Shown here: in pieces, positions 10,580 through 64,000 of the stretch
Layout: every line of letters starts with the position of its first letter
Numbering within the stretch: the stretch's first letter is position 1
DNA from: a virus
Taxonomy: Duplodnaviria > Heunggongvirae > Uroviricota > Caudoviricetes
IMG/VR virus record: IMGVR_UViG_3300022555_000023
Location: 8,095 to 72,094 of that record
DNA length: 64,000 nt
Reading direction: 5' to 3' (one strand)
The notes under the pieces: model-generated
Databases searched by the model: none
Told to the model about the DNA's origin: nothing
Seen by the model: only the letters and a program-made list of their open reading frames with translations
Program-made: the position numbers and the translations under genes

Positions 10580-10785
10580 ATTGAGCCCCCTGGAAATGCA
10601 GCCCGCCCAGTCATTGGGCTTAAACGTTGCTCGCCTCGGGTGCTTCTAGATTTAAATGTGGGGCGGGGGCCTGAATCTGTTGCCGGGTCGGAAAAGCGAG
10701 TGGCGGCTGTGTTTGGCGCGTCCGACCCGATTTTCAAAGCTGTAGTCCCCGTGACCCCCCGTCCATGAGAAGCATCACGTCTCCT

Positions 10786-10860
10786 GTCTACATAGATACT
10801 GTCTACATAGATACTGTCTACATAGATACTGTCTACATAGATACTGTCTACATCCGCCCC
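10786..10860. repeat. Tandem direct repeat of a 15-bp unit, CTGTCTACATAGATA, with four full copies and one partial copy
   Basis: Seen directly in the sequence as ctgtctacatagata repeated four times then ctgtctacatcc. It lies inside a 1.3-kb low-coding, lower-GC region between two minus-strand gene blocks. Confidence 0.9.
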
Positions 10861-11124
10861 CATGACTTCCGTTTGCTTCGGTATGATATCCTTATCATAT
10901 TGTTGTTGAATCAACGTGTGACGCGACGCACAACCACGCAACATGTCTATACAGATCTTGTTACGTCGCTGTGCGTTCATTACGCTACTCCTGTACACCG
11001 TCTTCGATCACGCGACGCAACCGTGATCTCCTGCGATCACTGGATGTCTTGCGTTGCACACGTCCATTAGATTACAGTTACTGTTCGCGTGTGTATGATC
11101 TTCATTCATCGTTCGTTTCATGAA

Positions 11125-28133: not shown

Positions 28134-28474
28134 AGGCGGTCAAAGTCACTGGCCAGCCGTTCTATCGACCTGCGGGCGACGGGCTCACGTGCGGCCACAG
28201 GCGGCGTCACAGCGGGTCGTGACGGGGCCTGGGCTGGCGTTCGGGTAGTTAAGGCCGATACATCGGCCAGGGGCTTGTCCCAGGCGGGCAAACCGGCGTC
28301 TTCCTCGCCCCACGGCAAATGGCCGGGAGCCTCGCCGGTCTCGGACCTCGTGTACTGGCCGAACTTGTCCCGAACCATGACCACCGGCGGCCCAGACTTA
28401 TTTATGAGCCCGTGGAAGATGATCTCGGCAGTAGCTTGGTCGATGTCGTGCATGGTGCTTTCAATACTGGACAC
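28079..28474 (-). CDS. Hypothetical protein of 131 aa ending ...PTRRRIQT (C-terminal tag)
   Basis: ORF. Confidence 0.45.
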   Translation of the reverse strand: MSSIESTMHDIDQATAEIIFHGLINKSGPPVVMVRDKFGQYTRSETGEAPGHLPWGEEDAGLPAWDKPLADVSALTTRTPAQAPSRPAVTPPVAAREPVARRSIERLASDFDRLWGQTAAPATPTRRRIQT

Positions 28475-28617
28475 CGCTGCGGCGTATGATTATCCCAGGG
28501 CAGCCTCTCGTATTCACGATCTGGATGATGACAGGAGAACCCGCCGTGGCTGTCCAGGTTATGAACGCAGCCCCAGCAATACGGCCCATCGTCGCACTGC
28601 TTCGGTCCAACTTGCAT
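28402..28617 (-). CDS. Small Cys- and His-rich protein of about 71 aa (MQVGPKQCDDGPYCWGC...)
   Basis: An internal ATG at 28615-28617 overlaps the upstream stop in a TGATG arrangement. Confidence 0.3.
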   Translation of the reverse strand: MQVGPKQCDDGPYCWGCVHNLDSHGGFSCHHPDREYERLPWDNHTPQRCPVLKAPCTTSTKLLPRSSSTGS

Positions 28618-28889: not shown

Positions 28890-29251
28890 AGCCCCTTCTG
28901 ATCACGCTCCAGTTTGATGCGGGGACTGTTCAAGTACCTGTGCATCTCACGCCACAGGCGGCGGGACTCATCGGTCAGCCATATTAGGTAGTCCAGTGGA
29001 ACAGCATCGATACGCTTACCCTCGTACTTCCCAAACCTCATGGTCGCCGTCTGGCCATAGGCTTTGGCCTCGACATCGTTCATGGGTACGGTCGCCGCAG
29101 TTCCCTGTTCCGGACGAACAGGTGCTGGTAGCCAGGGACTTATCAGTTCGCCTAAACGATTAGCAACAATACGACGACCGAGATCATTCATATCACTAAC
29201 TTCGCTAATGACCAAGGCTGCCAACTCGGATGCAACTTCACCTGGACTCAT
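28886..29251 (-). CDS. DUF3820-like protein (putative quorum-sensing-regulated virulence factor family) of 121 aa
   Basis: C-terminal MRFGKYEGKRIDAVPLDYLIWL matches the DUF3820 consensus (FGKYKGK..D.P..YL.WL). Confidence 0.5.
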   Translation of the reverse strand: MSPGEVASELAALVISEVSDMNDLGRRIVANRLGELISPWLPAPVRPEQGTAATVPMNDVEAKAYGQTATMRFGKYEGKRIDAVPLDYLIWLTDESRRLWREMHRYLNSPRIKLERDQKGL

Positions 29252-29793
29252 TTAGGTTGATTCCTTACTAAATTCCGTTCCACAATCGCCTCTGCAACTC
29301 GAAGTAAAGGCCCCTCACCCCAGACACCCATAGCGTTATTCACTAGTAACCAAACAATTCTAATGTTACCCTGAACGTAACCACACGATGGATCAATACG
29401 ATCTAACGACATCTTTCCGTAGTCAGTAGTTTGCTCAAACGGCATAGCCGTTATAGCACAAACACCGCCCTGTAAATCATAAACCTGACGCAGGTATTCT
29501 AGCGATATGTTGCAATCCAGGTTACGTCTGGCACTACGAGCACGTGCGTTTCGCATCATACACTCTAACGCTATGGAAACATCTACGTGACGACGATCTC
29601 GATGCTTGCGTTGACTCTTGCCAATTATCGCCCTTGCCTTGTCTGGATCATTCTTCCAAAGTTCTGCCCATCTTTTTGCACTACGCATATTTATAGATTC
29701 ACGATTCCGTAGGTAACACTGGCGATTTGTGTACCTCTTTCTAGCCTTCCTAATTTCTTCAGGACTTGTTTGAATTCGTCGTCGTTCTAGCAT
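29248..29793 (-). CDS. Hypothetical protein of about 181 aa starting MLERRRIQT (N-terminal tag). C-terminal segment SLDRIDPSCGYVQGNIRIVWLLVNNAMG.
   Basis: The ORF track gives 29248..29898, but ATG 29791-29793 has an AAGGAG ribosome-binding site 7 nt upstream. Confidence 0.5.
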   Translation of the reverse strand: MLERRRIQTSPEEIRKARKRYTNRQCYLRNRESINMRSAKRWAELWKNDPDKARAIIGKSQRKHRDRRHVDVSIALECMMRNARARSARRNLDCNISLEYLRQVYDLQGGVCAITAMPFEQTTDYGKMSLDRIDPSCGYVQGNIRIVWLLVNNAMGVWGEGPLLRVAEAIVERNLVRNQPK

Positions 29794-30045
29794 GGCGATG
29801 CTCCTTATGCAGTCCGCCAGAGGCCCTGGAGCATCGCCAAACGCAGACAGGGCGTGGCGGACATGATTTGGGCATTGGCGATGCTCGACTAGACTCATGG
29901 TACATTAAACCACAGCCGATAGCAACTCACGGCTTCACCTTCGCTTTCGCCGCCTTCTCCCGCATCGCCGCGGTCGCCCGCAGGAACGCCTCGGCGTAGT
30001 CAAGCTGGCCCTGAACGTAGCCGTCGTGCCAGTCCTGCGAAGAGT

Positions 30046-35211: not shown

Positions 35212-35255
35212 GTTCGGTAATCGTGATGCTGCAGTATCGTCGCCGCACCCACCGT

Positions 35256-35693
35256 TTAACCAGACACTGCACTTCTATCACGGTAATGTACTTTGCGATG
35301 ACAGTTTGAACAAAGCACTATGCACTTCCGAACCTCGGCTATGATTAGATCAATGGGAACACTAGTATTTATCATGTGCCTAACGCTATCAACTTTCTCG
35401 CCAGTAACATGATGAAAATCTAAACACGCAATATGCGTTTCCCCACACGAGCATCTATCAACACCGAGCACAGCAAGTAGACGTAACTTCATGTTCTCGC
35501 TACGCTTCCGATAACGTATACGACATGATTCCCGTGCATAGCTCGTTCTTACATAAATCCTCGCAGCCTCTCTTCGGCATGATAGACACGTGGATACGGG
35601 CCGACCGCGTGACATACAGAAGTTGCCCGTAATCGGTTTAGTGTACCCACATTTAGCACATCGCTTCGTTGCTATTTTCTGTCGTTCAACCAC
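35256..35693 (-). CDS. HNH endonuclease of 145 aa
   Basis: N-terminal CAKCG...CLSC zinc finger and LDFHHVTGEK...NTSVP...LCSNCHRKVH, an HNH ββα-Me motif. Confidence 0.6.
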   Translation of the reverse strand: MVERQKIATKRCAKCGYTKPITGNFCMSRGRPVSTCLSCRREAARIYVRTSYARESCRIRYRKRSENMKLRLLAVLGVDRCSCGETHIACLDFHHVTGEKVDSVRHMINTSVPIDLIIAEVRKCIVLCSNCHRKVHYRDRSAVSG

Positions 35694-35822
35694 GACTGTT
35701 CTCCAAACGCCGCCCGCCCCACCAGCAGAAGTAGCCGCGAAGTTAGATCGCTGGTGGGGCGTTTGGCGTGTACGGGAGTTCGCGGCTACCGTCGAGTTAA
35801 CAACTCAGTATAGCTTATCATA

Positions 35823-55451: not shown

Positions 55452-55699
55452 GCGGTCTCCAGTTTATGCACCAGCCGTAGAAGCTCGATACCGACGTCCT
55501 TCAGGTCTGGGTAGTGCTGGCTTGCGGCAGCATAGGCCACAGCAGCCTCGCGGCACGAGGCGATGTGGCCTATGCTGCCACCACTGTCCAGACGCAGTAC
55601 GAAGTACACGGCGTTCGGGTCGCACGTCGTACCATCGGCCTTGGTGACCTTATACCGCTGGTGAAGTCCGTTAGGATTCTCTTCGGCTGTTGGTATCAT
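55448..55699 (-). CDS. Hypothetical protein of 83 aa
   Basis: ORF with ATGA overlap. Confidence 0.45.
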   Translation of the reverse strand: MIPTAEENPNGLHQRYKVTKADGTTCDPNAVYFVLRLDSGGSIGHIASCREAAVAYAAASQHYPDLKDVGIELLRLVHKLETA

Positions 55700-60276: not shown

Positions 60277-61470
60277 TTAGCTACCGTACTTCGAGAAGTT
60301 CGGCGAGAATGACTCCTCGATCTTGTCCCACTCGGCCCGCACCACTGCGGACATACGCTTGGATTCGCTAATGTACATTTCACGCGGCTGTTTGTCCAGC
60401 CACTTCAGGTACGTTCCAGGTTTTCGTTCATCGAACAGTTCCCACTTCTTCACCTCAACTAACCAGTCTGCCATCGATTCGATGTCATCGATGCCGTAGT
60501 CAAAGATCACGGGGAACTCGCACTCGCGGAACGGCGGGCCACACTTGTTCTTCTTGCACTTGGCCTTGATGCGAACACCGACCACGCGTTCGATGCCGTT
60601 GACCGAGCGTTTGATCTGGCCAATATGCGACAGCCACACCACCCACGAAGCGTAGAAGTCCAGGGCTTTGCCGCCGGCACGCGTCGCCTTCTCGCCGAAC
60701 GATACATTCAGCTTGTCGCGTAGCTGCGAGATGACTATCAGGGTCACCTTGGCGGAGTTCAAAGGGCCGGCCAGGGTGCGGAAGAACTGTGACATGCGTT
60801 TGGCCTTCGCCATACCGTAACTGGCCTTGTCCATACCGCCATCCAGTTCGGCCTGATCGCTCAGGGCATCAAGGCTATCGATGATATACAAGCCTGGCAC
60901 GCGACGGCGTTCACACTCGGCAATGAAGTCCTTCACGTCCTGAAAGAACACCTCGACGATACGGCACTCCTCGACGAAGCTGATTCTGTCCATCGGCAGT
61001 CCCATGCGGCGGGCATAATTCACATCGAACGCGGCCTCGGCGTCGTTATATCGCGTGATGCCGGTCGGATAGGCGATGGAAAAGTTGGCACACGCCTCGA
61101 TGCATACGCCTGTCTTGTTCGTTGACTGCCAGCCAGCGAAGTTCACCACGCGGCCTTCAGGGAACGCTCCGCCACCACCACCACCAATCTCGCAGTCCAG
61201 AAGGGTACAGCCCGAACCGAATCGTTTAACACGGATATCCTCCATGTCGCCCGTGAGCCCGTAGGCCCCACCGTCGCGTACCAACGGCTCGTCATCGGTA
61301 TCGCGGGCGGTCTTGCGGCGAGTAGCCTTAGCCGTGCGACGTGGGGCTGCACGTGACCCGCGGGCCGGTGTTTCATCTTCGGTTGACTCGACGTCTTCGT
61401 CCTCTTCCTCACGCTGCGGAGGTGGGGGCGTTGCCGTTACGAGACGTCGTCGAACTATTTTCTTCGCCAT
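60277..61470 (-). CDS. uvsX: UvsX/RecA-family recombinase of 397 aa
   Basis: P-loop FAGWQSTNKTG (GxxxxxKT as in T4 UvsX, which has GPSKHFKS), LYIIDSLDAL (RecA strand-exchange region) and an acidic N-terminal extension. Confidence 0.7.
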   Translation of the reverse strand: MAKKIVRRRLVTATPPPPQREEEDEDVESTEDETPARGSRAAPRRTAKATRRKTARDTDDEPLVRDGGAYGLTGDMEDIRVKRFGSGCTLLDCEIGGGGGGAFPEGRVVNFAGWQSTNKTGVCIEACANFSIAYPTGITRYNDAEAAFDVNYARRMGLPMDRISFVEECRIVEVFFQDVKDFIAECERRRVPGLYIIDSLDALSDQAELDGGMDKASYGMAKAKRMSQFFRTLAGPLNSAKVTLIVISQLRDKLNVSFGEKATRAGGKALDFYASWVVWLSHIGQIKRSVNGIERVVGVRIKAKCKKNKCGPPFRECEFPVIFDYGIDDIESMADWLVEVKKWELFDERKPGTYLKWLDKQPREMYISESKRMSAVVRAEWDKIEESFSPNFSKYGS

Positions 61471-61638
61471 GATCTAACCTTCCTGATGCCCCGTATGCAC
61501 AGTCCTATGAAGAAGACATACAACATTCCGGGTGCGGTCAAAATGATGAACGGGAAAGTCCAAATCTTGTGAACTTTCTCCGCCTCGTCGCATACGTCTA
61601 AAAACCAGTTCATAGTTACCTCGGCTGACTAGACACGA

Positions 61639-61887
61639 TCACGGTTGCTTTCCCGTTTCCGTAGTCTGATACCGCATCCGCATCTCGACGCCTGACATAC
61701 CACAGCGAGGACAGCGTTGCCTGATGGAATCGTACTTGAACCAGTACGGCATGAAGAAGCACGGATGCGGTAGGCCACGGAGGCGTTCGCCTGGATCCAT
61801 CCGGTCAGCACTCGCCTGTCGAAGAAGTAGATCGATCTCGGCATCGTCATTATCGACAGGCGAGGTGACCGGACTCGCTGGAACCAT
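61639..61887 (-). CDS. Hypothetical zinc-finger protein of 82 aa (CPRCG)
   Basis: ORF. Confidence 0.35.
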   Translation of the reverse strand: MVPASPVTSPVDNDDAEIDLLLRQASADRMDPGERLRGLPHPCFFMPYWFKYDSIRQRCPRCGMSGVEMRMRYQTTETGKQP

Positions 61888-61982
61888 AGCTCATGATCTC
61901 CATATAAAGCGAGCCCGGCTATTTCGGAATCGCCGCCGGGCGGGGCACGTGCAGGCCCCTCAGAGACCGTCGTCATCTGCAT

Positions 61983-62457
61983 GCCTGCACTTGTTCATTC
62001 TGCCGTAGAACGATCATATCGTTCGCGCCTGCATGTCGTTGACGCATTGCTGGCTTAACCGTTTTCGATACCATCGGTCGCTACGAGCTACCTACTGCAT
62101 CGTTCGTATCTAACCACCTCCGCTATCACCGTAGTATGCTAGGTAGGAGTGCAAACCCAGCGCGTCTACGAGCACATCGTCGTCTGATCCAAGAACAAAC
62201 CCGTCGCTTCGCAATCGGGTGGTGAAGGCTGGTCTCGCAGGCAACCCTGCCGCCTTGCGTTGACAGGCCATGCTGCGGTCGAGTGGAACGCCCATCAGGT
62301 GTGCTCAAGCGCGTCCATCCCAATCCGTCCTGATTCCGGCCAGCCCTCACCACCCGCCTCTCCCCCACTGGGACTGAGAGGCGAAGCCTTGCGGCTACCC
62401 ACCAGTCTACCCGTCGCCGGGTTTTCCTTCTAGTGCAGGTAGTCGCAATCATTCGGT
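61983..62457 (-). other. Structured non-coding region of 475 bp between the SSB and UvsX genes. It may be a regulatory RNA, a 5' leader or an origin.
   Basis: No ORF of 60 aa or longer on the coding strand. There are nested inverted repeats, for example cctctc(13-nt loop)gagagg at 62364-62388, gcagg(caac)cctgc near 62231-62244, and a long-range pair gggtggtgaagg at 62213-62224 with cctcaccaccc at 62344-62354. Confidence 0.3.
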
Positions 62458-63780
62458 TCAGCTTTCGCTGCGGCGGCGTCCCTCGGCCACGCGATCCCGC
62501 AAGCTCGTGCGTGCGGGCGGGGCGTCGTCGGCATCGGCGTCGCGGCTTCGGCTGCGGGTCTCGCGGGCCGGTGGGTCAGTAGCCTCCTCGGCAGCACGGC
62601 TGCTGCGGCGGCGGGCTGGCGGGGCGTCGTCGTGGCCCGTGTCGCGGGCTGGCGGCGGGTCACGGTCGTCATCGACGTCCGCGTCGGCTTCTCGGCTGCG
62701 GCCCCCGTTGCGGCCAGCACGGGCCGGTGGCGGGTCATCGTCGTGGTCGTCGCGGTCGCGTCCTCGCCCACGTGCGGGCGGCGGATCATCATCAACGTCA
62801 GCGTCGCGTCCCCGGATCGCCGGTCGGCGGGCTCGGTTGTCGTCATCGTCGTCGGCGATATCGCGTGCTCGGCTACGGCTGCCGCGATCACCATCGTCGT
62901 CGTCGCGGGCGTGCCTGCGGTCGTCACCGCGATTTCCACCGCCTCGGCGATCATCTCCACCTTCGTCGCGGTTGCGGCGTTGCCCGGCCAGAGCAGCCTT
63001 GATGTGCTCATAGTCGTGGAAGGTGAGAAGCTCGGGAATCGGATTCTCGGCGATGGTACGCAACCAGTCGTCCTGACGGTCAGGGTTGTCGCTCAGCGGC
63101 GTGCTGCGGCGAGCAATGGCGATGCCACCGTACTTCGTCTTGATGCCGGTGCCGGTCACAGAAAACTCGATGTCGAATCCCTCCTCGGGATGATCGATGC
63201 ACACGGCTTCGCGGGTTTCCTTGTCCATGCTCAGCTTGTTCAAGTCGCGGTCCATCGACCACGCCATGTTCCAAAGCTGCGGGCCACTGTTGCGTTCGTC
63301 GCGGTCGATCACGTATGCGATCACCCGCTTTGTCGGCTGAAGGTTGCGGATGTAATCGTCGAAGTCCTTATCCGCCATCGACATCCCAGCAGCACCCAGT
63401 GCGGCGACGCGTTCACGCTCTTCGCACACCGGGCAGGCTTCGCCCTTCATCTTCTTCAGGCAGAAGTACTTCTGATTGTCCGCGCCCACGCTGAAGTGAA
63501 CATAGACCTCCAGGCCAAAGTCATCGGCACCTTCCGGATCCCAGTCGTCGGAACGTGTGGGATGGACGATCCCCAGTTCTTCCAGCAGATGATCGTTCCA
63601 CGACGGCGGGCAGATACGCAGCCGCCAGTCGCCCTCCTTGATGGAGACGACGTCAACATCGCTGCGGAACAGCGAGTCGAAAGCACCACCGCTCTGGTTG
63701 GCACGCCGCTGTACGGTGGCCGATGAGCGTTCGCGGTATTGAAAACCGCCGCGATTTCGGTCGTTGCCTCTTGTAGGCAT
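62458..63780 (-). CDS. gp32-like ssDNA-binding protein of 440 aa with a low-complexity C-terminal tail of about 170 aa, rich in Arg and Asp, carrying (D)nPPPAR repeats
   Basis: Zn-site-like CLKKMKGEACPVCEE. The size and acidic tail are typical of gp32. The tail has six PPAR repeats. Confidence 0.6.
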   Translation of the reverse strand: MPTRGNDRNRGGFQYRERSSATVQRRANQSGGAFDSLFRSDVDVVSIKEGDWRLRICPPSWNDHLLEELGIVHPTRSDDWDPEGADDFGLEVYVHFSVGADNQKYFCLKKMKGEACPVCEERERVAALGAAGMSMADKDFDDYIRNLQPTKRVIAYVIDRDERNSGPQLWNMAWSMDRDLNKLSMDKETREAVCIDHPEEGFDIEFSVTGTGIKTKYGGIAIARRSTPLSDNPDRQDDWLRTIAENPIPELLTFHDYEHIKAALAGQRRNRDEGGDDRRGGGNRGDDRRHARDDDDGDRGSRSRARDIADDDDDNRARRPAIRGRDADVDDDPPPARGRGRDRDDHDDDPPPARAGRNGGRSREADADVDDDRDPPPARDTGHDDAPPARRRSSRAAEEATDPPARETRSRSRDADADDAPPARTSLRDRVAEGRRRSES

Positions 63781-64000
63781 GGGTTCACCTCATTGGTTAC
63801 AGGTTCTTGGTTCCAGCGTTACGGGTCGCCTTATCGTCCCGCTTGCTACTCCTACACTAAACACATCTGCCGTTGGCTTCCGCGATCATTCTCGCGAGGT
63901 GCTGTTCATGCGACGTCGCTGGTCCGCCACGGCTTGGCGGGCCTCGTCACCTGCACGTTCTTCGGCGGCACGTCGGTCACCGGCGAGGCTTGCGTTGGCC

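Follow-up and report, generated by a model that had tools for sequence, protein, structure and literature searches.

A lineage-restricted candidate structured RNA downstream of the SSB gene in a clade of uncultivated soil phages

The operator of T4 gene 32 is a pseudoknot of the 5′ leader that is bound by gp32, has an unstructured A/U-rich tract and runs into the ribosome-binding site (PMC10690425). Beside GP32 genes from viral metagenomes, 12 candidate structured RNA motifs have been described within 25 nt upstream (PMC10690425). The locus considered here belongs to the phage IMGVR_UViG_3300022555_000023 (hereafter W), of which a stretch of 64,000 nt, referred to as the window, was analysed. 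Like the T4 operator, its structured element lies beside a gp32-type SSB gene and includes a probable pseudoknot, and by analogy the SSB protein is a conceivable RNA-binding partner; unlike the operator, the element lies 3′ of the gene, spans ~240 nt, is G+C-rich and multi-helical, and is missing from most relatives that possess the same SSB. With the metagenomic motifs it shares its origin in comparative genomics, its tie to a phage SSB gene and its lack of an Rfam model, but it is found downstream of the gene and its conserved blocks have no copy in IMG/VR, the kind of collection used in that survey.

Three other types of element bear some resemblance to the one described here. RNase III sites of T7 are single intercistronic hairpins of ~60 nt, without invariant junction sequence or pseudoknot. 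Like such hairpins, the present element is long, irregular, very stable and located between genes of one transcription unit, and its stem P3 (15-19 bp), if stacked on its hairpin H2 (12 bp), would make a plausible substrate for a double-strand-specific RNase. Its layout recalls the three-way-junction aptamers of riboswitches (closing stem, pseudoknot, conserved unpaired bases in junction and loop, variable peripheral hairpin, co-varying helices), from which it differs by the absence of an Rfam match and of a fixed expression platform, by a variable distance to the next gene and by a context that hints at no ligand. As in MITEs and remnants of IS ends, including orphan TnpB/IscB guide-RNA scaffolds, a short non-coding unit, with inverted repeats that could serve as its ends, has a patchy distribution among close strains and a sharp boundary; unlike these, it is single-copy, shows no target duplication at the repeat ends, has no adjacent nuclease gene and conserves structure outside the repeats.

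The original prediction described a GC-rich gap of 475 bp lying between the SSB and UvsX genes. The gap in fact measures 570 nt (61888-62457), because the 117-aa ORF that had set its limit at 61982 does not represent the gene; both relatives and public gene calls favour an 82-aa ORF starting at 61887 (orf82). Since phage genomes are packed, a non-coding stretch of 570 nt is a costly exception. Its G+C content (58.1%) is close to that of the window (57.7%), and only the core made up of H2 and P3 reaches 66.7%. Two genes, orf82 (61639-61887) and orf52 (61455-61613), intervene before RecA/UvsX. That most gaps of this genome are 0-50 bp is roughly right, a crude gene call giving a median of 14.5 nt. 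In 72 more distant relatives the gap after the SSB gene has a median of 5 nt and never exceeds 133 nt. The gp32-like SSB gene itself (440 aa, 62458..63780, minus strand) was assigned from a weak Pfam gp32 match and a PHROG SSB match; its C-terminus (SLRDRVAEGRRR) is complete and conserved in relatives with and without the structured element, which begins ~10 nt past the SSB stop codon, and its leader is a separate region of ~105 nt. The true downstream neighbour of the gap is orf82, which codes on the minus strand for a small protein with CxxC motifs, starts at a conserved N-terminus and is conserved in W and in lineages A, B and C. The neighbours of the element (SSB, orf82, orf52, RecA, a CAP-domain protein and an HNH endonuclease) are all encoded on the minus strand, on which the element is also read. 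The SSB-RecA junction is a hotspot, occupied by orf65, orf131, orf52 or nothing, depending on the lineage.

Structure is confined to the SSB-proximal ~240 nt (62216-62448, minus strand); the 3′ 307 nt of the gap (61888-62194) fold without significance (z = -1.0). The structured part consists of two hairpins, H1 and H2, and of the stem P3 (15-17 bp, up to 15-19 bp across lineages), which in the model closes a junction of two helices, A and B, with a probable loop-junction pseudoknot. H1 (62389..62448) is an extended hairpin of 60 nt in the MFE structure (UUGCG.CUACC..CACUAG / CUGGUG.GGUAG.CGCAA; z = -2.7), with a lower stem of 16 bp and, in W, an apex closed by a GNRA loop (ACCCG-GCGA-CGGGU). 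The hairpin of lineage A at this site differs in its lower stem, which is unrelated (CGGUGCCGU/ACGGCACCG), and has the apex CCCG-GAAA-CGGG (z = -3.8); lineage B2 keeps of H1 only the apex (ACCCG-GUGGU-CGGGU). H2 (62355..62383; CGCCUCUC-AG-UCCC-AGU-GGGG-GAGAGGCG; z = -3.3 in W) is a 29-nt hairpin of 8+4 bp, the outer stem of which is the cctctc/gagagg pairing noticed from the start and present at 62357-62362/62376-62381. Its counterpart in lineage A is also 29 nt long and has the same bulge and loop layout with 10 of 29 bases identical (z = -3.1), half of the 12 pairs being changed on both sides.

The long-range complement that had been pointed out is also present, as a 17-nt, 94% complementary inverted repeat (62216-62232/62340-62356), and forms P3 through the 5′ arm (C)GGGUGGUGAGGGCUGG (62340..62356) and the 3′ arm CCAGCCUUCACCACCC(G) (62216..62232), both read on the minus strand. 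The single DNA mismatch of P3 in W is a G.U pair on this, the gene strand, on which the lone mismatch of lineage A reads A.C. Across carriers, arms of 17-20 bp surround an interior of 107-110 nt. The middle of P3 has 3 bp in W (GAG/UUC) vs. 5 bp in lineage A (CGAAG/CCUCG), i.e., an insertion of 2 bp compensated in both arms. On the right, the conserved element ends with the 3′ arm, and this boundary is sharp, the flanks of W, A and B1 being unrelated past ACCACCCG.

On the same strand, a first invariant block (GGGCUGGCCGGAAUCAGGACGG, 62325..62346), the 22 nt of which are identical in W and lineage A, contains the putative 5′ strand of the pseudoknot (AUCAGG, 62329-62334). Helix A (62284..62317; UGGACGC / GCG-U-UCCA), found in the MFE structure and in the covariation alignment, comprises 7 bp, a bulged U and a loop of 19 nt; in lineage A, both partners differ in two of its pairs, and the bulged U is kept. 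This loop holds the second invariant block (CACACCUGAUGGGCGU, 62288-62303; consensus CACACCUGAURGGCGU), identical at 15 of 16 positions in W, A and B1, and within it the putative 3′ strand of the pseudoknot (CCUGAU, 62294-62299). A 6-bp pseudoknot AUCAGG/CCUGAU is probable given the 6-nt complementarity of these two invariant segments; the pseudoknot and the core of helix A are invariant, hence they yield no covariation signal. Helix B (62236..62277; CGCAG / CUGCG) has counterparts in A and B1, where a helix occupies the same anchored position, and a variable distal part, in which the gcagg-caac-cctgc stem of the original prediction, present at 62238-62251, is a competing local fold. In both A and B1 the helix reads GUUGCG/CGCAGC, with a GCAA cap in B1 and a GGCG-GAAA-CGCC branch extension in A.

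Such structure exceeds what shuffled sequence produces. The longest inverted repeat with at most one mismatch (17 nt) was reached in none of 300 dinucleotide shuffles, which averaged 10.4 nt and never went beyond 14 nt. For the 5′ 263 nt of the gap, the folding z-score is -3.8 on the minus and -4.3 on the plus strand; for the element of lineage A it is -4.8. Tested singly in each lineage, H1, H2, helix B and the P3 domain give z-scores from -2.4 to -5.1, with the exception of helix B in W. Among 258 tiled segments of 170 nt, the one covering H2 and P3 ranks third by z and first by free energy. The antisense strand folds almost equally well (z = -4.3 in W, -4.4 in A), and the count of G.U pairs in the MFE structure is by itself indecisive as to strand (7 against 5). 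Four GNRA tetraloops (GCGA, GAAA, GAAA and GCAA) and four G.U pairs are found on the gene strand only, on which the free energy is also lower.

The prediction of a structured RNA in the non-coding gap is supported by a diverged sister lineage that keeps the shape through compensatory changes. In lineage A, the SSB of which is 82% identical, an element with this architecture occupies the same position, abutting the SSB stop codon as in W; it is found by a covariance model built from the W sequence alone (71.9 bits, E = 3e-13). In the alignment of W and A, 96.7% of cells pair, vs. only 40-54% in slid controls. The search for covariation in related phages that had been proposed yields, in addition to the compensated insertion in P3, 12 pairs changed on both sides and spread over five helices (5.3 +/- 1.7 in shuffles, 0/500 reaching this count), in an alignment that was fitted to the W-derived structure and with very few independent events behind it, as only two full-length lineages and a partial one are at hand. 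The near-invariant blocks of 22 and 16 nt stand against 61% identity at 4-fold codon sites of SSB between W and A, and A and B1 agree at 49 of 50 positions in their core halves, vs. 64% at 4-fold sites.

The element is carried by three lineages of one uncultivated soil-phage clade, namely W, A and, in part, B1 (locus L061), and is missing from lineages B2, B3 and C, in which orf82 and RecA are present; judging from these sequences, it is dispensable there. The contrast is sharpest between L061, which carries the element, and L181 and nine other contigs, which are identical to it from TACGGCAGG onward yet lack the element. Between the end of P3 and orf82 lie ~20 nt in A, ~117 nt in B1 and ~325 nt in W, the linkers being unrelated. 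The assemblies of relatives break inside the element; this is the effect of co-occurring strains that have near-identical core segments and differ in the presence of the element. A second copy was found neither in the 64-kb window nor in ~1.5 Mb of related loci, the search with two covariance models covering ~1 Mb of related loci, and exact-block scans (ACACCTGATRGGCGT, a 22-mer and GGCCGGAATCAGGACGG) of IMG/VR and 185,579 genomes returned only chance matches with dissimilar flanks. A DNA search of INPHARED found no match, and by protein the relatives among isolated phages are only remote (SSB 36% identical in Edwardsiella phage vB_EpM_ZHS). Single-protein scans of IMG/VR, JGI metagenomes and GTDB genomes gave distant relatives only, all devoid of the gap.

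No known class of RNA accounts for the element. At gathering thresholds, Rfam has no match in the whole window; at E<=10, its release 15 (4227 families) gives in the region 61400-62700 two unrelated sub-threshold matches on the plus strand, at 61911-62088 and outside the core, and in lineage A only junk miRNA matches. No riboswitch model matches the locus or lineage A even at E<=10, HEARO and IS605-orfB give no match, and ribozymes, GOLLD, ROOL, 6S, RNase P and tmRNA are likewise among the families that gave no match near their gathering thresholds. The tRNA search proposed at the outset was negative, ARAGORN finding no tRNA or tmRNA gene in the window, and the suggested degenerate intron fares no better: Intron_gpI, Intron_gpII and group-II-D1D4 have no match at E<=10 in the locus or in lineage A, the C-terminus of SSB is complete and identical in relatives without the element, and the N-terminus of orf82 is conserved. 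A T4 gp32-type operator for SSB is not supported, the element being positioned 3′ of that gene instead of in its leader, nor is an operator or leader for RecA/UvsX, with two genes and up to 325 nt in between. No promoter and no recurring promoter-like word were found in the locus, and no intrinsic terminator on the minus strand of 61400-62700, where one terminator-like site lies on the wrong strand; the sequences directly after H1, H2 and P3 read AGA, GGG and GAUUGCG. Antisense targets of both invariant blocks, searched in all minus-strand sequence of the window, amounted to the extremes expected from 12,800 windows, none of them at a start codon. No RT domain of a retron or DGR was present among the 29 ORFs of the window that were scanned. 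By eye, a hammerhead core (wrong core sequence), an HDV-like nested double pseudoknot (wrong strand order of helices) and a sigma-54 promoter (GG-N11-GC spacing, which W also lacks) were considered and discarded, as was a likeness to a tmRNA acceptor end (GGGCUGG.../...CCAGCC..CACCA), for which ARAGORN and the Rfam tmRNA models gave nothing.

These observations point to a real element, most likely a new and dispensable non-coding RNA that falls in no known RNA family: as read from the sequences, the gene strand carries an accessory structured RNA that is under selection and restricted to a few lineages. That 62216-62448 encodes, on the minus strand, a structured RNA under purifying selection, taken jointly with the full account that follows, is somewhat favored on balance. 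As it starts ~10 nt after the SSB stop codon, the RNA would be made most simply as a 3′ extension of the SSB message. It would fold into H1, H2 and the long P3, the latter closing a three-way junction with helix A, helix B and a 6-bp pseudoknot that would join the loop of helix A to the 5′ strand of the junction. The helices would act as a scaffold in which sequence changes and shape is kept, and the two near-invariant, mostly unpaired blocks would form the working surface. We guess that a trans-acting partner, either a protein or a small ligand, would bind this surface and thereby may affect the fate of the SSB-orf82-RecA transcript by processing, stability or read-through. Alternatively, the domain might be set free as a stable small RNA, a stand-alone small RNA being possible. 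Because near-identical sister strains are without it, the element is viewed as an accessory module and not as part of the replication core, and because the distance to the next gene spans 20-325 nt, no single cis-regulatory logic fits all carriers. Should a ligand or host protein be bound by the junction, a new device for regulation or against the host would be at work; should it only shape mRNA ends, it would be an ordinary though unusually elaborate intercistronic element. There is also a small chance that it founds a new class of phage accessory RNA, a dispensable cassette beside recombination genes with the pseudoknotted junction as specific binding pocket or catalytic core, for instance as a riboswitch or ribozyme of a new type, or as a decoy by which a host protein of defence or RNA processing is titrated. 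A testable candidate is added to the small set of phage-encoded structured RNAs; its secondary structure, limits and invariant residues are defined, and natural strains exist that carry or lack it. Its narrow distribution (three lineages of one clade) limits its general importance for now.

Among the rival explanations, a small non-autonomous mobile DNA element (a MITE-like unit or IS-end remnant), of which the P3 arms would be the terminal inverted repeats and the RNA features incidental, is improbable. The variation in presence or absence among very close strains (L061 vs. L181 and the nine contigs), the sharp right boundary at the end of the P3 3′ arm with unrelated outer flanks, and the arms and interior of rather constant length all speak for it; so does a 9-nt direct repeat in W (GCGACGGGT) that brackets 62208-62408, the in silico deletion of which restores a textbook terminator (ACCCG-GCGA-CGGGTTTGTTCTT), and one relative (L175) has a TnpB-like gene of IS605 type near RecA. 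Yet chance alone predicts ~0.6 such repeats in 570 nt, and lineage A has nothing corresponding to it; its reading as a target-site duplication is at odds with the lower stem of H1, the 16 bp of which span the supposed insertion boundary. At the P3 boundaries themselves (flanks GAGAGG| and |ATTGCG), there is no target-site duplication, the element is single-copy in every genome region examined, and covariance model R1 sees no similarity to the TnpB locus of L175. Moreover, H1 and H2 lie outside the arms and keep their shape by compensatory change, and the inner helices co-vary and carry GNRA loops, neither of which is expected of a MITE. The same inner architecture, typical of aptamers in its closing stem, invariant unpaired junction, pseudoknot and variable peripheral hairpin, would suit a riboswitch-like or attenuator leader that senses a ligand or protein and sets the expression of orf82 and RecA, the 3′ strand of P3 either swapping between P3 and a terminator or occluding the ribosome-binding site. 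In lineage A, 13-20 nt separate the end of this arm from the orf82 AUG, and the arm overlaps a possible Shine-Dalgarno sequence (GGAUGAG), and in W the end of P3 (ACCCG) could pair instead with CGGGU, followed by UUUGUUCUU. We nonetheless hold this reading to be unlikely: the W alternative has only 5 bp and a 12-nt loop and was missed by the terminator scan, a closing stem of 15-19 bp is unusually long for a switch, Rfam has no riboswitch match even at E<=10, and the fixed short distance to the gene expected of riboswitches is contradicted by ~20, 117 and 325 nt of unrelated linker in A, B1 and W. In addition, lineages B2, B3 and C, it is argued here, express orf82 and RecA without the element.

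The hotspot character of the SSB-RecA junction, the unstructured or lineage-specific regions next to the element (X and Y, see below) and its dispensability would all agree with a neutral or decaying spacer, left by lost small genes in a hyper-plastic insertion site and containing functionless hairpins. This is quite unlikely, as block identity is far above neutral, five helices show compensatory changes, two diverged lineages both have significant fold z-scores, and no protein remnant was detected by tblastx against all related loci or by Pfam and PHROGs for every in-gap ORF. Still less credible is a function at the DNA level (an origin, as had also been suggested, a recombinase or invertase site on the 17-bp inverted repeats, or a hairpin of ssDNA). 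Both strands fold about equally well, the locus lies within a replication and recombination module and relatives' assemblies break inside it; but these breaks are explained by co-occurring strains, no recombinase is nearby, the G.U pairs and GNRA loops are strand-specific, and neither iterons nor an AT-rich unwinding region is present. The element is not expected to be a replication or recombination origin, because sister strains that are nearly identical are without the sequence. Finally, a missed gene can be practically set aside, and the earlier statement that the gap has no plausible ORF stands. Minus-strand ORFs of 108 and 61 aa and the 117-aa ORF overlapping orf82 do exist, and the 61-aa ORF was called on two contigs by one public gene caller. 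Their codon-position GC is flat (0.60/0.66/0.57 vs. ~0.7/0.48/0.7 in real genes) and their coding score negative, the in-gap ORFs belong to no protein family and have no match in Pfam or PHROG, and the ORFs are not preserved in lineage A. A HMMER search of the 61-aa ORF against 1.84 billion representatives recovered only itself and three giant proteins, each matched over 2-14 separate stretches, which are taken to be compositional matches.

The remainder of the gap differs in character. Region X (~200 nt, 62008..62215, minus strand) is found in W only, is not significantly structured and has no homologue: its counterpart is missing from lineages A, B1 and B2, and it gives no signal in tblastx against all related loci, in Pfam or in PHROG. 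For this segment, a neutral or decaying spacer is probably the fitting description. Region Y (61888..62007, minus strand), the leader of orf82, is common to lineages B1 and B2, being homologous in L061 and L181 from TACGGCAG onward, and is missing from lineage A; it contains a hairpin GCCCGGC...GCCGGGC at 61913-61941. The 5′ coding part of orf82 carries a separate conserved hairpin of ~20 bp (61801-61872, z = -3.6), in which RNAalifold, run on a plain MAFFT alignment, identifies 24 pairs, five of them changed on both sides.

Almost all credible genes of the window lie on the minus strand, where the gap under study falls within a replication/recombination module that also encodes Mre11/Rad50-like proteins, a 5′-3′ exonuclease and methyltransferases. 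The gap is bounded by a gp32-like SSB gene (62458-63780, minus strand), recognized by a weak Pfam gp32 match and PHROG SSB matches, and by orf82 (61639-61887, minus strand), a small gene with CxxC motifs. The latter is followed by orf52 (61455-61613, minus strand), coding for a 52-aa protein, and by the gene of a RecA/UvsX-like recombinase (60277-61470, minus strand; Pfam RecA, 7.7e-40). Hence the gap does not directly separate SSB from UvsX, as the original prediction had it, nor does it measure 475 bp: the 117-aa ORF that bounded it is displaced by the overlapping orf82, which public gene calls on identical contigs choose and whose product is alignable from its first residues in four lineages, so that the gap spans 61888-62457 (570 nt). 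Its supposed GC richness is confined to the core formed by hairpin H2 and the long stem P3 (66.7%), the gap as a whole having 58.1% against 57.7% for the window. The product of orf52 has one hydrophobic, membrane-span-like segment (FPFIILTAPGMLYVFFIGLCI); this gene, which overlaps the RecA start by 16 nt, is known only from the window phage, relatives having a 131-aa gene or nothing at that place. The window is matched by a 192.5-kb metagenomic contig, the gap sequence recurs without a single difference in six contigs of different samples, and the phage is distant from every isolate in DNA and protein comparisons.

The gap is non-coding, as predicted: codon-position GC is flat across it, coding scores are negative, none of its ORFs matches Pfam or PHROG, and tblastx finds no protein remnant. 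The sole in-gap ORF ever predicted by a public caller retrieves, among 1.84 billion cluster representatives, only itself and three giant proteins, matched in 2-14 separate stretches and read as compositional hits. All three stems listed in the original prediction are present at their places, and the long-range inverted repeat (17 nt, one mismatch) was reached in none of 300 dinucleotide shuffles, whose maximum was 14 nt. Unusual folding energy is limited to the SSB-proximal 263 nt (z = -3.8 and -4.3 for the minus and plus strands), as against z = -1.0 for the distal 307 nt. Among 258 tiled 170-nt windows, the one holding H2 and P3 ranks first (lowest) by free energy and third by z (-4.55, 200 shuffles). 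Elsewhere in the window, several further stretches of 480-960 nt (10580-11101, 28134-28616, 29084-30045, and 35212-35822) received no confident gene in a crude call by coding potential; small genes or non-coding features of another kind may lie in them, and none is similar to the element described here.

This element (62216-62448, minus strand) folds over ~240 nt into several helices, contains two blocks that are near-invariant and mostly unpaired, and abuts the SSB stop codon. Comparison of the window phage (lineage W) with a full-length copy from lineage A reveals the same parts in the same order. Hairpin H1 starts 8-10 nt past the SSB stop in both; its lower stem is unrelated in sequence (UUGCG.CUACC..CACUAG in W, CGGUGCCGU in A), and both lineages keep the apex CCCG-GNRA-CGGG. 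H2 measures 29 nt in each and is built alike, from an outer stem of 7-8 bp, a 5′ bulge of 2-3 nt, an inner stem of 4 bp and a loop of 3-4 nt, yet only 10 of the 29 bases are identical. P3 comprises 15-17 bp in W as against 19-20 bp in A, the middle (GAG/UUC vs CGAAG/CCUCG) differing by a 2-bp insertion that is matched on both arms. It encloses, in this order, a first junction with the invariant sequence CCGGAAUCAGGACGG, helix A, a second, short junction that ends in CACUC, and helix B. Helix A consists of 7 bp with a conserved bulged U, GGA/UCC in W being replaced by GCC/GGC in A, and its 19-nt loop contains the invariant CACACCUGAU. Helix B (CGCAG/CUGCG in W, GUUGCG/CGCAGC in A and in lineage B1) keeps its anchored distance from CACUC, and likewise that from CCAGCC, in all three lineages, its distal part being a GCAA tetraloop in B1 and carrying an extra GGCG-GAAA-CGCC branch in A. 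Folded singly, the sub-helices are significantly stable in each lineage, with z-scores of -2.4 to -5.1, except helix B of W (z = -1.1). The AUCAGG of the junction is complementary to the CCUGAU of the helix A loop, both strands being invariant; judged by complementarity rather than covariation, the two would form an H-type pseudoknot.

With W as its only sequence, covariance model R1 retrieved lineage A with 71.9 bits (E = 3e-13) and the B1 fragment with 21.8 bits, and nothing further in 318 kb. Covariation in relatives had been proposed as a check of the original prediction: in the model-derived alignment, 96.7% of 90 cells pair and 12 of 39 pairs are changed on both sides (5.3 ± 1.7 in shuffles; 0/500), for three sequences aligned to a structure taken from one of them. 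When partners are slid by 1-3 columns, pairing falls to 40-54% with 1-3 double changes. At 4-fold degenerate sites of SSB, identity is 61% for W vs A and 64% for A vs B, whereas the element blocks common to W and A comprise an uninterrupted 22 nt and 15/16 nt; at 61% identity per site, a given 22-nt identical run has a probability of ~2e-5 by our own calculation. Across helix A, A and B1 are identical at 49 of 50 nt. The helices have diverged to near-random identity yet still pair, and invariant blocks together with such helices are the signature of a functional RNA rather than a neutral spacer. In at least two lineages that have diverged from each other, selection has maintained the fold. Both strands have about equal z-scores, and the G.U count of the minimum free energy fold alone is indecisive. 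The gene strand is nevertheless favoured because on it all four tetraloops at the ends of conserved helices belong to the GNRA type (GCGA, GAAA, GAAA, GCAA), four of its G.U pairs in these helices would turn into A.C mismatches on the opposite strand (one case is the reverse), the free energy is lower, and all transcription at the locus runs in its direction.

In distant relatives (SSB 28-47%, RecA 39-51% identical), SSB stands directly before RecA. Since at 72 such loci the next ORF of 50 aa or more follows the SSB stop after a median of 5 nt and never more than 133 nt, the gap is a derived feature of one small clade, recovered through protein look-ups. Besides W, this clade comprises lineages A (L186, L187, L051, and L176; SSB 82% identical), B1 (L061), B2 (L181 and many other contigs; SSB about 80% identical), B3 (L191) and C (L062). 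Only W, A, and B1 carry the element, which is dispensable in the others: B2 has just a 155-nt spacer keeping an H1-like apex hairpin and the distal region Y, B3 is without it, and in C a 65-aa gene replaces it. At L175 (RecA 57% identical), the spacer is 82 nt. B1 and B2 are identical from TACGGCAGG onward, yet differ in the presence of the element. Three assemblies break inside it; because the same samples yielded contigs of lineage A and of B type, A and B1 have a near-identical 50-nt core segment in common and B1 and B2 differ as described, these breaks likely reflect co-occurring strains and are no evidence of inversion. Within the element or immediately before it, four public assemblies of relatives are broken or bridged by Ns (L051:5663-5672, L061:1, L176:1, and the end of L052); the L051 sequence left of the Ns differs from the intact L186 allele and may be mis-joined. 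In B3, a different hairpin-rich non-coding stretch follows a 130-aa gene (L191:2215-2365), and on the 58.7-kb parent contig 597 nt ahead of RecA are free of gene calls. The SSB-RecA junction is an insertion hotspot, at which both small genes (orf65, orf131/130, orf52) and non-coding inserts turn up.

The element represents a structured RNA motif that is new and narrow in distribution. It has no Rfam match, even at E ≤ 10, no tRNA or tmRNA was found, and its conserved blocks are absent from IMG/VR and from one genome each of 185,579 species in block scans. The original observation was largely right and its general interpretation as a structured RNA is supported by folding, compensated changes and selection; its specific analogies are not supported. 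Neither SSB nor orf82 is incomplete or altered in relatives without the element, which excludes a degenerate intron, and the T4 gene-32 operator lies in the 5′ leader of its gene (PMC10690425), whereas the element begins after the SSB stop codon. In its present form it does not qualify as a terminator in a terminator scan. That the structure is real and selected we consider quite probable; with gene strand and accessory status included, the statement is still the better bet, held with less assurance.

Insertion of a mobile element would account for the presence/absence polymorphism and the sharp right boundary. In W, moreover, the 9-mer GCGACGGGT (minus strand) occurs at 62409-62417, where it forms the 3′ half of the H1 apex, and at 62199-62207, where it precedes TTTGTTCTT, so that the two copies bracket most of the element; in-silico removal of 62208-62408 (201 nt) yields ACCCG-GCGA-CGGGTTTGTTCTT, a canonical sequence of intrinsic-terminator type after SSB. 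This looks like an insertion scar, an appearance weakened because chance alone predicts ~0.6 such repeats per 570 nt, no counterpart exists in lineage A, and the insert would need to carry one strand of the 16-bp H1 lower stem. The element is also single-copy in the window and the related loci searched, lacks a target duplication, and is conserved in structure outside the repeats, making a mobile origin unlikely. No reverse transcriptase, TnpB, IscB, or recombinase gene adjoins it. A TnpB-like gene (OrfB_IS605/Cas12f-like TNB) does lie ~650 nt downstream of RecA in L175 (6704-7768), and IS605-type elements therefore visit the SSB-RecA module; R1 detects no similarity of the element to that locus. 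A riboswitch-like leader acting on orf82/RecA would fit the architecture, but the spacing varies from 20 to 325 nt and we regard this role as improbable too.

Most likely, the element is transcribed together with SSB, as an extension at the 3′ end of its message, and the invariant junction and loop, probably joined by the pseudoknot, would offer a recognition surface to a trans-acting partner. The outcome could be release of a stable small RNA or control of transcript fate, whether by processing at the long P3/H2 duplex, by protecting the SSB message against decay from its 3′ end, or by read-through into orf82-RecA; each of these mechanisms, taken singly, is less likely than not.

Region X (62008-62215), unique to W, has no detected structure or homologue. 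A ~20-bp hairpin (CCGGUCACCUCGCCUGUCGA ... UCGACAGGCGAGUGCUGACCGG; 61801-61872, minus strand) overlaps the 5′ coding part of orf82 and is conserved in W, A, B, and C, thus also where the upstream element is missing; 5 of its 24 pairs are changed on both sides (RNAalifold on a plain MAFFT alignment; z = -3.6), where the residues encoded by the 5′ arm vary (SPVD, SPAA, EPAV), the 3′ arm carries compensating changes, and several G.U pairs form on the gene strand only. A T4-like operator would, by analogy, be expected in the SSB 5′ leader rather than in the element. Comparison of this leader (63781-63888 in the window; L051:4185-4295; L181:2905-3000) revealed a hairpin block, AGUAGCAAGCGGGACGAYRAGGCGACCCG, common to W and lineage A, with no covariation among the three sequences, and deleted in B2, which is also without the 3′ element. 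The strongest z in the 170-nt tiling (-4.2, 200 shuffles) belongs to a near-perfect ~26-bp hairpin (GGUGGCAGCAUAGGCCACA... / ...UGUGGCCUAUGCUGCCGC; ~55523-55582, minus strand) near the junction of two small ORFs.
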